This document shows positions 1 to 34,647 of a stretch of 40,269 nucleotides of DNA, piece by piece. Made by a program: the position numbers and the translations under genes. The notes beneath the pieces were generated by a model. That model searched no databases and was not told the DNA's origin. It saw only the letters and a program-made list of their open reading frames with translations. Each line of letters opens with the position of its first letter. The stretch's first letter is position 1. Origin of the DNA: Dehalococcoidales bacterium (GTDB taxonomy: Bacteria > Chloroflexota > Dehalococcoidia > Dehalococcoidales > DATKVW01); contig DATKVW010000101.1 in the NCBI GenBank assembly GCA_035529875.1, forward strand, positions 1 through 40,269. The letters run 5' to 3'.

Positions 1-110
1 ACAAGATAAAAATCCACTTAGCTACAATGCCAATAATTTTCAACATTATCCTCAACAAATTTATACCCCGATTTTACACTGTTAAGGCTGAAAAGCATAG
101 TATTTTGTCT

Positions 111-310
111 ACCTACCCCCTTTATCCCCCTCTCCTAAACAGGAGAGGGGGAAGAGGTTTTTTAAGAGGGGTTTGCCCCTCTTAGACACCCTGCTAGTCT
201 AACCTCCTTCAAAGAAGAGAGGAGAGATTTTAGAGAGGGGCAAAGTCCCCTCTCATATCAACTCCCCCTTCCCTTGGTAAGGGAAGGGGGTCAGGGGGAT
301 AGGTCTAAAC
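111..310 (+). repeat. GC-rich modular hairpin repeat array, copy 1a (hairpins H1-H4 plus GGATAGGT tail)
   Basis: Perfect stems read directly: 126-135/142-151 CCCCCTCTCC/GGAGAGGGGG; 163-171/176-184 TAAGAGGGG/CCCCTCTTA; 233-240/247-254 GAGAGGGG/CCCCTCTC; 264-275/279-290 CCCCCTTCCCTT/AAGGGAAGGGGG. These are followed by TCAGGGGGATAGGTCTAAAC. The same modules recur at five other loci. Confidence 0.85.
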
Positions 311-353
311 GAACACCGAAGAGGGTGAGAAGTTGGTAAGCTCTTTTCTAGAA

Positions 354-447
354 GTAAATCCTAAACCTGAAGGTTTGGTTTTTTGGGTTTTGGTAATTAG
401 TGTTTTGAATTTGTTTAGGGCTTCGTGCTTGGAATTTTGGATTTTAC
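354..447 (+). mobile_element. AT-rich MITE-like module X, copy 1 (short form)
   Basis: The ends GTAAATCCTAAA ... TTTTGGATTTTAC are inverted repeats. The interior (TTTTGGTAATTAGTGTTTTGAATTTGTTTAGGGCTTCGTGCTTGGAATTT) is homologous to 34431-34540 and to the reverse complement of 8837-8947. Confidence 0.4.
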
Positions 448-450
448 TCA

Positions 451-502
451 CTCCCCTCTTCCCTTATTAGGAGAAGAGGGTTAAGGGGATAGGTTGTTAA
501 AC
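451..502 (+). repeat. Hairpin plus GGATAGGT tail module, copy 1b
   Basis: CCCTCTTC (454-461) pairs with GAAGAGGG (473-480). It is followed by TTAAGGGGATAGGTTGTTAAAC, a variant of the tail seen at 289-310. Confidence 0.7.
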
Positions 503-4154: not shown

Positions 4155-4267
4155 ATCACTCATACTACTTGCGCCCTTACACTCTGTCCCAAAAATCATA
4201 ACTAGCCTGCTCTTCCCCATTAAGCCATACTAACCCAACCTAGTGGAGTTAATAGATTATGTTCCAA

Positions 4268-4423
4268 CCTCACCCCCTTTATCCCCCTCCCTTTGAAAGG
4301 GAGGGGGAATCGTCTTAAAAGAGAGGCTGGCGCCCCTCTTAGACACCCCTGCTTAAATAAGCCCCTACCCCCTTCCCTTGTTAATTTGTTAAGGGAAGGG
4401 GGTCAGGGGGATAGGTTACCAGG
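4268..4423 (+). repeat. GC-rich modular hairpin repeat, copy 2 (H1, H2, H4 plus tail; no H3, no X)
   Basis: Stems 4283-4291/4299-4307 CCCCCTCCC/GGGAGGGGG and 4368-4379/4391-4402 CCCCCTTCCCTT/AAGGGAAGGGGG. These are followed by TCAGGGGGATAGGTTACC. Confidence 0.85.
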
Positions 4424-4553
4424 TAATCTCTTGAGAGAATTGACTTAAAGTAAGGTATCTATGGCGAGCTATGAGTATAGCCTTGCGCATCCCCATAATA
4501 ATTCTAGAAAATCTTACCCTATTAGTGCTAGAATGGGTGAACAGGAAACCAAA

Positions 4554-5333
4554 ATGCCTCCAAATGATAGCTTATATGGGCACCGGAAAAGGTTACGAGA
4601 AAAGTTCGTTAAGTCAGGGCTTAAGGGCTTCCACGATTACGAAATTATTGAATTACTGCTAACCCTGGGCACGCCGCGTAAGGACTGTAAACAGCAGGCA
4701 AGGGAAGCCATTAAGCGGTTCAAAACCCTGAGGGGAGTCCTGGAGGCTACCCCCGAAGAACTACGACAGATAGACGGCGTTGGTTCCCACTCCGTCTTTG
4801 GCATCAAGCTGGTGCAGGAAGTAGCCAGGGAGTTTCTTAAGGAAAGAATTATTAATAAGCCTATTTATAAATCCTCCCAAGAAATTTTTGACTATCTCTA
4901 CCACTCAATGCGCGACCTCAAGAAAGAGGTATTCAAGGTCATTTATTTAAATAGCCAGAATCAGATTATTGAAATAGACGACCTTTTCGCCGGTACCATA
5001 AATAGTGGTGTTATCCCTCCCCGTGAGGTTATAGAAGGTGCTATTAAACATAATGCTACCTCCCTGATTTTCGTCCATAACCATCCGTCAGGCAATCCCC
5101 AATCCAGCGAAAATGATAGAGAGCTAACCAGAGACCTGGTTTACGCCGCCAGCATTATGCGGATTAAGGTCTTAGACCATATTATCATCGGCAATAACAC
5201 TTACTTCAGTTTTGCTGGCGAAGGACTGATTGATGAATACGAGCTGGATTTTATAAATCTGAAAGCCAAAGGAGTCCGCGAAGCTAAACGGAAACTCTAT
5301 AGAGCTAAATTATCCAGCCTCAAACCCTACTAG
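4554..5333 (+). CDS. radC: RadC-like JAB-domain protein, paralog 1
   Basis: HhH region IIELLLTLGTPRKD and JAB motif HNHPSGNPQSSEND...LTRDL. The start is set at the ATG at 4554 (MPPNDSL) because paralog 2 begins with the homologous MPPNSLL; the ORF track starts 93 nt earlier. Confidence 0.85.
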   Translation: MPPNDSLYGHRKRLREKFVKSGLKGFHDYEIIELLLTLGTPRKDCKQQAREAIKRFKTLRGVLEATPEELRQIDGVGSHSVFGIKLVQEVAREFLKERIINKPIYKSSQEIFDYLYHSMRDLKKEVFKVIYLNSQNQIIEIDDLFAGTINSGVIPPREVIEGAIKHNATSLIFVHNHPSGNPQSSENDRELTRDLVYAASIMRIKVLDHIIIGNNTYFSFAGEGLIDEYELDFINLKAKGVREAKRKLYRAKLSSLKPY

Positions 5334-5630: not shown

Positions 5631-6428
5631 TTGCCCCCGAACAGTTTATTGTCAAGTCTGAAAACAGGAAAATCCTTGACCGCGCTACAGGAAAGGTTTA
5701 TCAAGGTCGGCCTTGAGGATTTCAACGACCAGGAAATAATTGAATTACTGTTAAGCCTGACCTTGCCCCAGCAGCAATGTCAGCAGCAGGCAAAACAGTG
5801 CGTTGAACACTTCAAAAATCTCAGGGGATTCCTGGCGGCTTCTCATGAGACACTAGAGCGGGCGGGGATTACTCCCCATTGTATGCTTTGTATTAAGCTG
5901 TTACACGAATTGCCTGCACAGATTCTGAAGCAGAAGATTACGGAACAGCCTGTTCATTGCTCATCTAAAGAGCTTGTTGACTATCTCCTTTACTCAATGC
6001 GAGACCTCAAAAAAGAGGTATTCAAGGTTACCTATTTAAATAACCGAAACCAGATTATTGATACCGCTGACCTGTTTGAAGGAACTCTGAACAGTATCCC
6101 CATCCGTCCCCGTGAGATTGTAGAAAGTGCTATTGAGCATAACGCTATCGGTTTGATTTTTGCCCACAACCACCCTGCCGGCGACCCTACACCTTCCAAG
6201 AGTGATAAGCAGCTAACCAGAGACCTGGTTTTTATGGGCATGATTCTGCAAATTAAGGTGCTAGACCACATCGTAATTGGCAAAAACATATACTTTAGTT
6301 TCGCTGATGAAGGGCTGATTGAAAAATACGAGGATAATTTCCTTAACCTGAGAATAAGAAGCCTGTTTGAAAGTGAAGAGGGTTACTCCACAAATTCACA
6401 TCAAGTTTCTAGCCGGTATTACCACTGA
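5631..6428 (+). CDS. radC: RadC-like JAB-domain protein, paralog 2
   Basis: TTG start preceded by AAAGGAAG. HhH region IIELLLSLTLPQQQ and JAB motif HNHPAGDPTPSKSD...LTRDL. Confidence 0.85.
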   Translation: MPPNSLLSSLKTGKSLTALQERFIKVGLEDFNDQEIIELLLSLTLPQQQCQQQAKQCVEHFKNLRGFLAASHETLERAGITPHCMLCIKLLHELPAQILKQKITEQPVHCSSKELVDYLLYSMRDLKKEVFKVTYLNNRNQIIDTADLFEGTLNSIPIRPREIVESAIEHNAIGLIFAHNHPAGDPTPSKSDKQLTRDLVFMGMILQIKVLDHIVIGKNIYFSFADEGLIEKYEDNFLNLRIRSLFESEEGYSTNSHQVSSRYYH

Positions 6429-7542: not shown

Positions 7543-7570
7543 TGTTCACACCCCCGATAATACTATCTAC

Positions 7571-7665
7571 CTTACCCCCTTAATCCCCCTCTCCTTTAGC
7601 ACCCTTATCCTCCAAAGGGCGGAAGGTTTTTAACAAAAGGGGCTAATGCCCCTCTTAAGCCCCCC
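7571..7665 (+). repeat. GC-rich modular hairpin repeat, copy 3 (degenerate H1 plus H2)
   Basis: CTTACCCCCTTAATCCCCCTCTCC matches the H1 left arm, but the right arm is decayed. AAAAGGGGCTAATGCCCCTCTTAAG matches H2. The copy ends exactly at the comF stop codon. Confidence 0.65.
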
Positions 7666-8705: not shown

Positions 8706-8754
8706 CGGACTTGAGCTACAGCGTCAAGCAGGATGGCTTGAAATTGTTTATTAA

Positions 8755-8985
8755 ACTTACCCCCTCTTATACACCCTGCTTAAATAAGCCCAATCCTCAA
8801 AGGGGAAGAGATTTTAGAGAGGGGCGAAGCCTATAGTGAAATCCTAAATTCCAAGCACGAAATTCTAAACAAATTCAAAGCGCTAATTACTAAAACCCAA
8901 GAAACCAAATCCTTAGGCTTTGAATCTAGGATTTAGAAATTAGAATTTATTCTTGGAAGGGGGTCAGGGGGATAGGTTGCTAAAC
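8755..8985 (+). repeat. GC-rich modular hairpin repeat, copy 4 (truncated H2, H3 left arm, inverted X, tail)
   Basis: CCCCTCTTATACACCCTGCTTAAATAAGCCC matches 4333-4363. GATTTTAGAGAGGGGCGAAGCC matches 226-246. The tail GGAAGGGGGTCAGGGGGATAGGTTGCTAAAC lies at 8955-8985. Confidence 0.8.
8837..8947 (-). mobile_element. AT-rich MITE-like module X, copy 2 (long form, inverted relative to the other copies)
   Basis: Its reverse complement aligns along its full length with 34431-34540, with scattered substitutions and 1-3-nt indels. The ends carry repeated TTCTAAA/TTTAGAA heptamers in inverted orientation. Confidence 0.45.
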
Positions 8986-9081
8986 AGTCTCTAAATAAAG
9001 CGATGACCCCTCTCCAATAAAGGTTATAGGCTATCTGAAAAAGCGGTTTGCTCAGACTGGAAAGGGGTGCGAGGAAAAATC

Positions 9082-9255
9082 GTGCCCAAAGCACCGAAAA
9101 TGTATGTGCCTTGCCCTTATTGTGGATGGTATGGACCAAACACCTTTGAAATGGTGTCAAGGAAAGGCATCACTAGTCCTGACCCAAGCAACGCAGCACA
9201 ATGGGAACTAATCTGCACATGTTGTAAGCGTAAGATAGACCAAAAAGAGCTGTAG
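9082..9255 (+). CDS. Small zinc-ribbon protein, function unknown
   Basis: CPYCG...CTCC Cys pattern. The GTG at 9082 sits 6 nt after GAGGA; the ORF track starts at the GTG at 9067. Confidence 0.4.
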   Translation: MPKAPKMYVPCPYCGWYGPNTFEMVSRKGITSPDPSNAAQWELICTCCKRKIDQKEL

Positions 9256-32860: not shown

Positions 32861-32936
32861 TGGTGGAGCTGAGGGGACTCGAACCCCTGACCTCCTCCGT
32901 GCCAAGGAGATGCCCTCCCGATTGAGCTACAACCCC
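32861..32936 (-). tRNA. tRNA-Ala (anticodon GGC), CCA encoded
   Basis: The hand fold of GGGGTTGTAGCTCAATCGGGAGGGCATCTCCTTGGCACGGAGGAGGTCAGGGGTTCGAGTCCCCTCAGCTCCACCA has a 7-bp acceptor stem with the G3:U70 alanine identity pair. The anticodon loop is TTGGCAC and the T arm is AGGGG-TTCGAGT-CCCCT. Confidence 0.9.
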
Positions 32937-32985
32937 CTTCCCTTAATATAAAGAAGGGGGTTAGGGAGATAGGTTGCTTAAAAAC
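32933..32985 (+). repeat. Hairpin plus GGATAGGT tail module, copy 5, overlapping the tRNA 5' end
   Basis: CCCCCTTC (32933-32940) pairs with GAAGGGGG (32953-32960). It is followed by TTAGGGAGATAGGTTGCTTAAAAAC. The first 4 nt are tRNA positions 1-4. Confidence 0.7.
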
Positions 32986-34270: not shown

Positions 34271-34330
34271 TGAACATCCATAAAAATACCACAGTAGTGG
34301 GGCAAAGCGCAACTAATGAGATTGCTTATT

Positions 34331-34607
34331 CACCTCACCCCCTTAATCCCCCTCTCCTTATAAGGAGAGGGGGAAATAGTTTTGTAAGAGGGGCTAACGC
34401 CACTCTTAAACGCTCCGCTTTCTCAAGATAGATTCTAAATTCTAAATCCTGACTTCAAAGCCTCAAGGTTTGTTCTCTGGTTTTAGTAATTAGTGCTTTG
34501 AATTTGTTTAGGATTTCGTGCTTGGAGTTTAGAATTTTACTAAGGGCTTCGTCCCTCTCTTACCTGCACTCTCCCTTCCCTTGACAAAGGATAGGTTGCT
34601 AAATAAC
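34331..34607 (+). repeat. GC-rich modular hairpin repeat, copy 6 (H1, H2, X, H3 right half, degenerate H4, tail)
   Basis: Perfect 26-nt palindrome CCCCCTCTCCTTA/TAAGGAGAGGGGG at 34348-34373. TAAGAGGGG/CCACTCTTA at 34385-34408. Tail GGATAGGTTGCTAAATAAC at 34589-34607. Confidence 0.85.
34431..34540 (+). mobile_element. AT-rich MITE-like module X, copy 3 (long form)
   Basis: GATTCTAAATTCTAAATCCT ... GAGTTTAGAATTTTAC inverted ends. Homologous to 354-447 and to the reverse complement of 8837-8947. Confidence 0.45.
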
Positions 34608-34647
34608 CTCCATCAGTGACAAGTGAATTATTGCAAACTCCTGGCAA

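Follow-up and report, generated by a model that had tools for sequence, protein, structure and literature searches.

The Correia/NEMIS elements of Neisseria and the ERIC/IRU elements of enterobacteria are non-coding sequences of ~100–160 bp that carry terminal inverted repeats and target-site duplications (TSDs) of TA, fold into long, stable hairpins, and occur in hundreds of mostly intergenic copies with insertion polymorphism; the consensus of ERIC is conserved across genera. The BOX elements of Streptococcus pneumoniae (boxA-boxB(n)-boxC) combine conserved terminal modules with variable internal hairpins and come in many size classes. The REP and BIME sequences of Escherichia coli and the REPINs of Pseudomonas are extragenic, GC-rich palindromes that reach high density, form mosaic clusters, and contain inverted pairs of a unit made of a conserved tail plus a hairpin. 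These systems favor gene 3′ ends, and their RAYT gene typically has the repeats on either side. Single-strand transposition by Y1 enzymes (IS200/IS605-type, RAYT) makes no TSD. Here, we analyze a 40,269-nt stretch of DNA from a Dehalococcoidales bacterium (GenBank assembly GCA_035529875.1, contig DATKVW010000101.1, positions 1–40,269; hereafter the window), in which a first-pass annotation had noticed a chain of five GC-rich hairpins at 111–502, upstream of dnaE, and had likened it to a REP/BIME mosaic assembled from a small set of hairpin modules. We find that the hairpins belong to a real, abundant, and apparently undescribed family of repeats in uncultured Dehalococcoidia, with a smaller second family nested in it. 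The main family, family A, is quite probably a non-autonomous DNA transposon, a transposable element of the miniature inverted-repeat kind (MITE) moved by staggered-cut (DDE-type) transposition.

Structure of the Element

Much of the initial description of the dnaE upstream region was borne out. A repeat search recovered four perfect hairpins, two with 12-bp stems (125–136/141–152 and 264–275/279–290) and two with 8-bp stems (164–171/176–183, which is the core of I6, and 233–240/247–254), as well as the fifth, an imperfect 13-nt stem at 454–466/468–480; both of the reported tails are present, GGGGGATAGGTCTAAAC at 294–310 and GGGGATAGGTTGTTAAAC at 485–502. Throughout 104–504, one side of the hairpin arms is strictly pyrimidine-only and the other purine-only. 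Compared with dinucleotide shuffles, the region folds far more stably, with z-scores of −5.9 for DNA and −6.5 for RNA folding, none of 100 shuffles being equally stable. The left-end motif ACCCCCTTWATCCCCCTC was observed four times in the window against an expectation of 0.00, and the tail motif three times against 0.09. The reported absence of 3′ U tracts proved essentially right, with only the hairpin at 125–152 being followed by a weakly T-rich AGAGGTTTTT, and the hairpins were correctly said not to be simple intrinsic terminators, terminator-like sites being no commoner than in shuffles; nor does the family-A consensus have a T run after its second or third hairpin.

What did not hold was the idea of independent modules that assort freely. 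We searched one genome of each GTDB species for exact matches to a right-end 19-mer, GGGGGTCAGGGGGATAGGT, and aligned the flanks of the matches (115 loci, numbered with the prefix L below); the hairpin modules turned out to be internal parts of one element of ~150 nt. Family A is bounded by imperfect terminal inverted repeats of ~35 nt, AGATTGTTTATTAACCTCACCCCC… on the left and …GGGGGATAGGTTGCTAAACAATCT on the right, which enclose three hairpins; the left end AGATTGTTTATTAACCTCACCCCC matches the reverse complement of the right end, AGATTGTTTAGCAACCTATCCCCC. The consensus reads AGATTGTTTATTAACCTCACCCCCTTWATCCCCCTCTCCTT-nnn-AAGGAGAGGGGGAAGAGATTTTAGAGAGGGGC-GAA/TTC-GCCCCTCTCTTACCTACACTCCCCCTTCCCTT-ATT-AAGGGAAGGGGGTCAGGGGGATAGGTTGCTAAACAATCT, and the master form has the terminal repeats 5′-AGATTGTTTATTAACCTCACCCCCTTWATCCCCC… and …GGGGGTCAGGGGGATAGGTTGCTAAACAATCT-3′. 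In each end a conserved tip leads into a hairpin (M1 in the left end, M3 in the right), and M2 lies in between; in all three hairpins, one arm is made of pyrimidines only and the other of purines only. The M2 loop of 3 nt is found in both orientations, GAA and TTC. The length has its mode at ~150 nt and ranges from 75 to 419 nt, the minimal forms of 81–82 nt (L012, L015, and L100) consisting of the two ends only. According to the open reading frame (ORF) listing of the window, no plausible protein-coding ORF lies inside family-A copies. The tip TTGTTTATTAA may loosely resemble the inverted repeat of IS903, an element with 9-bp duplications.

In the consensus fold (RNAalifold), the two ends pair with each other and, together with the three internal hairpins, form a four-way junction, and in several copies (e.g., L005, L021, L055, and the window copy at 4255–4426) changes in one arm of a stem are compensated in the other. 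Such a fold, together with the strongly negative folding z-scores under the RNA model, is what one might expect of a multicopy family of structured small RNA genes. However, with Rfam 15 only the tRNA in the window reaches its gathering threshold, the best subthreshold match in the region 60–560 scoring 27 bits against a threshold of 230 and the top matches being microRNA precursors hit by chance through their hairpins; no conserved promoter or terminator is found beside the copies, which lie in either orientation relative to their neighbors, are often truncated or nested, and carry TSDs. We regard an RNA gene family as scarcely credible.

Evidence for Mobility

The strongest evidence for transposition comes from the flanks of the full copies. 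In a first set of 59 full copies whose flanks could be read, 11 were bounded by direct repeats 7 nt or longer, whereas permuting the flanks between copies gave an expectation of ~1; in an independent second set, consisting of metagenome contigs picked by the left end, the repeats were found in 13 of 56 copies, again against ~1 expected. Taken together, 24 of the 115 full copies carry flanking repeats of 7–11 nt, compared with ~2 expected, examples being TCTAATGCTGA (L010), CTTTAATCATA (L074), TGTACTTG (L110), and TAAATATTGA.

Comparison of orthologous sites points in the same direction. At 7564–7657, the window carries an inserted copy where the orthologous hpf gap of L003 is empty, and the copy of L077 is absent from the orthologous site of L113; BLAST suggested a further filled/empty candidate, L099 versus L066, in which the alignment did not resolve the junction. 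More generally, a neighboring copy is present or missing at orthologous genes species by species. Recent bursts of amplification are also seen: two TSD-bearing copies of one metagenome-assembled genome (MAG; the L017 pair) share 92% identity with each other and 95% with a copy from a second MAG (L110). Complete or near-complete genomes with recent copies include CP070810.1, MNYD01 (CG2_30_46_19), and DAOUZA01.

The flanking duplications bear directly on the REP/BIME analogy. Under that explanation, a unit of ~45 nt, a hairpin with a G5 tail, would form the larger elements as inverted pairs and be spread by a single-copy RAYT, an IS200/IS605-like Y1 enzyme. Several observations agree with it: the two ends of the element represent a single tail-plus-hairpin unit in inverted, diverged copies, as in a REPIN, solo right-end units are common (15 among the neighboring copies that were unselected by the search pattern and 2 in the window), the overall density of ~1 copy per 6–10 kb resembles that of REP elements, and no transposase lies near the copies, as a single-copy RAYT would predict. 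Yet the direct repeats of 7–11 nt are not a product of Y1 transposition, the conserved inverted repeat reaches the very tips of the element, ~20 nt past the hairpins, gene 3′ ends are not favored, 39% of divergent gaps are occupied, and no RAYT was found in the window or among the scanned ORFs beside copies. The analogy fails on mechanism, a single element bounded by terminal inverted repeats being the unit that duplicates its target, and we consider a REPIN-type origin very unlikely.

Origin of the Mosaic and Copies in the Window

The repeats owe their modular look to insertions into existing copies, to duplications and deletions inside copies, and then to the amplification of some composites. 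Right-end tails are found inside M3 loops; one MAG shows this composite junction repeatedly, at the loci L022, L040, and L056, so that composites are amplified in their turn. Doubling of the left end is a common variant, and in at least one case (L101) a duplication encloses the variant in its entirety. Three family-A copies contain a copy of family B, a second and unrelated inverted-repeat element of ~100 nt (AAATCCTAAA…TTTAGGATTT), which occurs in the window at 346–444 (+), 8839–8940 (−), and 34437–34537 (+), only nested in family-A copies; one further copy, L027 3084–3154, was found among the 115 genome loci.

In these terms, the chain of five hairpins upstream of dnaE resolves into a full copy of family A, a copy of family B, and an old right end of family A. 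The full copy, ~208 nt at 104–311 (+), contains an internal partial duplication and is matched by profile positions 7–88 and 35–149, the profile being a 152-position nhmmer model of family A for which only copies of other genomes were used. The full copy is made up of the left terminal repeat (104–132), M1 (125–152), M2′ (164–183), M2 (233–254), M3 (264–290), and the right terminal repeat with the tail GGGGGTCAGGGGGATAGGTCTAAAC (286–310). Between this copy and the decayed right end lies the family-B copy of ~100 nt at 346–444 (+; nhmmer E = 5.7e-25), which in blastn is 89% identical to 8839–8909 (−) and 34479–34541 (+), the three window copies having been aligned. The decayed family-A right end at 445–504 (+; profile positions 90–150) consists of an imperfect M3 (454–480) and the tail GGGGATAGGTTGTTAAAC, is 80% identical to 264–304, and has 4 of the 19 positions changed in its version of the otherwise invariant 19-mer.

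The orthologous site upstream of dnaE could be followed in five species. All of them keep the right end of the repeat, its spacing to a conserved extended −10 promoter being much the same, and the left flank is common to three of the five; the interior ranges from ~80 nt (L090) to ~400 nt (the window and L070). The promoter itself, TGTGCTATAAT at 601–611, lies outside the repeat, ~30 nt upstream of the dnaE start, and variants of the form TG-n-TATAAT are conserved in the five Dehalococcoidia species; also outside the repeat, an upstream block GATTTTACACTGT (70–82) is conserved in three of them. A different kind of junction was seen in one Chloroflexi MAG (JACQTX01), in which the right end of the element is joined to a repeat of ~165 nt on three contigs (L029 2922–3123, L052 4882–5084, and L054 6457–6664). 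With 87–93% identity across the contigs, the latter represents a different small repeat family; the common flank had been considered as an insertion sequence (IS), a candidate that was dropped as it amounts to nothing but the ~165-nt repeat.

The same modules had been reported from five other gaps of the window, and the profile from other genomes matched exactly the six gaps named. Of the noncoding gaps longer than 100 bp, six of 11 had been reported as occupied; a crude ORF map gives six of 14. A full family-A copy at 4255–4426 (+; profile positions 2–150, E = 1.8e-27), with compensatory substitutions in its M1 stem, lies between dnaE and radC; the window has two tandem radC (JAB-domain) paralogues directly downstream of dnaE, at 4461–5333 and 5631–6428, and radC likewise follows dnaE in L070. 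Between hpf and the next gene, 7564–7657 (+; positions 9–91) holds the left part of a copy, with the left end, a broken M1, and M2′. The copy at 8743–8989 (+; positions 3–82 and 118–152) is interrupted by family B at 8839–8940 (−), its right end at 8955–8989 being intact; in the gap beside it, a 51-codon ORF at 9100–9255 (+) has a CPxC…CxxC spacing that looks zinc-ribbon-like by eye. The right-end unit at 32933–32985 (+; positions 83–151, the profile match extending over 32914–32985), a degenerate M3 with the tail GGAGATAGGTTGCTTAA, abuts the 5′ end of tRNA-Ala(GGC), encoded on the minus strand at 32861–32936. Finally, the copy at 34320–34608 (+; positions 2–102 and 61–152) is interrupted by family B at 34437–34537 (+) and has lost the right arm of M3.

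In total, the window holds seven family-A copies per 40 kb, several of them truncated or mutated, the dnaE-proximal right end included. All seven are on the plus strand although the flanking genes lie on both strands. We considered this bias as a sign of single-strand transposition and discarded it: elsewhere, neighboring copies share their orientation in 30 cases and oppose each other in 46, indicating no general bias.

Distribution and Genomic Setting

Family A extends well beyond the window, in agreement with its initial description as a dispersed, palindrome-rich intergenic repeat family with a mosaic make-up. The identical right-end 19-mer was found in more than 115 stretches from at least 63 species-level assemblies, and the left-end 21-mer matched more than 120 metagenome contigs; modules confined to the window, one of the two outcomes that would have spoken against a dispersed novel family, were thus not what the scan returned. 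As to the other, a previously described family, no Rfam family matched, be it at gathering or at E-value thresholds, and our literature searches, by sequence string and by topic (repeats of Dehalococcoidia or Chloroflexi), found no description of the element. A cyanobacterial repeat akin to SDR or Nezha, our first guess, was abandoned: the literature gave nothing relevant, and the genomes matched in the scan pointed to Dehalococcoidia instead. No match to the element was found in plasmid, phage, and IMG/VR collections.

Among the listed 19-mer matches, 57 of 63 assemblies are labeled as Dehalococcoidales, Dehalococcoidia, or Chloroflexota, most of them as Dehalococcoidales. The window genome is distinct from all the genomes matched, since orthologous coding DNA in the 19-mer loci is only 73–78% identical to it; the window has a G+C content of 48%, and its first 9 kb are identical to a metagenome contig in ENA. 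Its genes include dnaE, the two radC paralogues, hpf, a large ribosomal-protein cluster, a clpB-like gene, dnaJ, and tRNA-Ala. Some host labels fall outside the group. Two contigs of a “Calditrichales” MAG (L059 and L070; JAIWFK01) and one of a “delta proteobacterium” (L028; CAVTZP01) encode proteins that are 63–82% identical to those of Dehalococcoidales loci in amino acid sequence and are syntenic with them; judging from the gene content, these labels look wrong, and the contigs are probably mis-binned or mislabeled. With at least three oddly labeled contigs carrying Dehalococcoidia-like syntenic genes, we did not adopt spread across phyla as an explanation; a few GC-rich contigs with the element are nominally assigned to Proteobacteria, Gemmatimonas, and Caldilineaceae.

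The copies avoid genes: 181 of 190 (95%) are intergenic. The 110 occupied gaps comprise 62 tandem, 32 divergent, and 16 convergent ones, and occupancy is 39% for divergent, 17% for tandem, and 20% for convergent gaps, with no preference for gene 3′ ends. Among neighboring copies unselected by the search pattern, the density is ~1 per 10.6 kb. Outside the selected end, copies from different genomes have a median identity of 76%, which does not exceed the identity of copies within genomes. Many 19-mer matches lie within ~200 nt of a contig end (L009, L012, L021, L026, L036, L043, L047, L061, L068, L083, L084, and L095), a pattern suggesting that the repeat may break short-read assemblies of these MAGs. 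At four loci, the rnhB (RNase HII) ORF reads into the element (L058 3082–3753, L059 3580–4257, L073 2413–3072, and L076 3757–4395), which in those species supplies the last codons of the gene (…TYPPDPL…) and its stop codon, an element lying at this end of the gene in all four.

This setting allows one to weigh the possibility that the copies are cis-acting elements of the host, serving as hairpins at transcript 3′ ends or for transcript stability, as RNase processing sites, or as binding sites of nucleoid or other proteins, and are kept by purifying selection. The very stable structure and the compensatory changes that keep the stems would agree with such roles, as would the identity of the right-end 19-mer across the species-level assemblies and the occurrence of copies at the same sites in several species: upstream of dnaE in five, at the 3′ end of rnhB in four, and at the 3′ end of hisC in two or three. 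However, palindromes can retain their symmetry without selection, decay or truncation affects many copies, empty orthologous sites are frequent, and identity between genomes does not exceed that within genomes. Divergent gaps, which need no terminator, are occupied about twice as often as tandem and convergent ones, and the lack of U tracts, of an excess of terminator-like sites, and of Rfam matches also speaks against this role. A terminator function was rejected on the absence of U tracts and of a 3′-end preference, and strict purifying selection on orthologous copies on the decay of the dnaE-proximal copy in the window. Overall, we find a role as host cis-elements unlikely, and taken together the observations fit selfish birth and death better than a host function of each copy. 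It is nevertheless possible that the very stable hairpins affect neighboring transcripts.

Search for a Transposase

That no transposase gene is visible in the window, as stated in the first-pass annotation, agrees with our scan of all its nonribosomal ORFs, which revealed none. The search was extended to ~1.4 Mb of DNA flanking the copies. Clustering of ORFs of at least 120 aa in the 115 loci gave housekeeping genes as the top clusters (FabF, HisC, IleRS, GatA, RNase HII, and DnaE). For a parent IS, we examined left and right ends 0.4–5 kb apart as well as orphan ends, and scanned the enclosed ORFs with Pfam; among outward-facing end pairs 0.6–3.5 kb apart (7 of 22 pairs), the 10 largest ORFs were all either housekeeping genes or without a Pfam match. 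An autonomous parent IS among these loci was set aside as a candidate, the scanned ORFs enclosed by ends being of the same two kinds.

Discussion

Family A has four defining features of a MITE: it is small (MITEs measure less than ~300–500 bp) and noncoding, has terminal inverted repeats, has TSDs, and is present as many dispersed, polymorphic copies; of a fifth, a cognate autonomous IS that has the same ends and encodes the transposase, no example was found in the ~1.4 Mb around the copies. We envisage mobilization in trans by a transposase whose gene would lie at another place in the genome or be lost by now; the staggered cuts, with a duplication of ~7–9 bp, point to an enzyme of the DDE type. 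New copies would land, or survive, almost solely in intergenic DNA, and both they and copies of family B may insert into older family-A copies; parts of the element would then be duplicated or deleted, some composites amplified, and old copies left to decay.

A number of observations weigh against this explanation. In the ~1.4 Mb of DNA flanking the copies, neither a transposase nor an autonomous partner element was found. None of the window’s own copies has a recognizable flanking duplication, and elsewhere, with observed repeats of 7–11 nt, the TSD length can be given no more finely than ~7–9 bp, owing to the ambiguous GAG/CTC at the termini. In addition, many species share the consensus, internal hairpins and linkers included, with some compensatory changes in the stems. 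This conservation exceeds the need of a transposase binding site alone, and there is room for some selection on the structure or for some host use. A specific form of this idea is that the unit of ~45 nt, a hairpin with the tail G5-TCA-G5-ATAGGT, is kept class-wide as it is needed by the host or by a domesticated, single-copy transposase encoded away from the copies, or that it has been exapted as a protein-binding or RNA-processing site. We consider this unlikely; if true, dependence on a transposase would make a long-lived, vertically inherited partnership of element and enzyme, like that of RAYT and REPIN but with an enzyme that makes TSDs. A MITE moved by staggered cuts is, by comparison, an ordinary kind of element and no new kind of system, and its description opens no new category of biology.

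The family does, however, change the picture of its hosts. Dehalococcoidia are abundant bacteria of the subsurface and sediments, known almost only from MAGs, and their genomes are usually called small, one complete genome with the element measuring 1.03 Mb. A hairpin-rich mobile element every 6–10 kb would make these genomes less static than assumed, and the copies offer many sites for recombination and for altered gene ends, as in the rnhB ORFs of four species. The repeat probably adds to the fragmentation of short-read assemblies, given the many matches at contig ends. In practice, the consensus can be used for masking or flagging the repeat in annotation, and the element may serve as a marker for mis-binned Dehalococcoidia contigs, such as the two from “Calditrichales” and the one from a “delta proteobacterium.” Insertion polymorphisms could type strains, and the consensus could guide the hunt for the mobilizing transposase.

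Among described systems, the Correia, ERIC, and BOX elements appear closest in behavior. Family A shares with Correia/NEMIS and ERIC/IRU the general traits listed at the outset, and it is comparable to ERIC in the conservation of its consensus, but it has no sequence similarity to them, duplicates ~7–9 bp instead of TA, has arms that are strictly pyrimidine- or purine-only with runs of C5/G5, resides in uncultured Dehalococcoidia, and is not known to have an IHF site, a promoter, or an RNase III role. Like BOX, it joins conserved ends to a variable interior and comes in many sizes; unlike in BOX, the interior varies by nested insertion and internal duplication or deletion rather than by tandem repetition of a single module, and the sequences are unrelated. 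The PATEs (palindrome-associated transposable elements), miniature derivatives of IS200/IS605, are likewise small and noncoding and have subterminal hairpins, but they lack both the terminal inverted repeats and the TSD that family A has. The likeness to REP/BIME and the REPINs lies in the palindromes, their density and mosaic clustering, and the inverted pairs of tail-plus-hairpin units; the differences are the TSDs, the inverted repeat that reaches the tips, the lack of a 3′-end bias, and the lack of a GTAG-type head. Whereas REP sequences and REPINs depend on single-strand Y1 transposition, family A appears to behave as a cut-and-paste or replicative DDE element.

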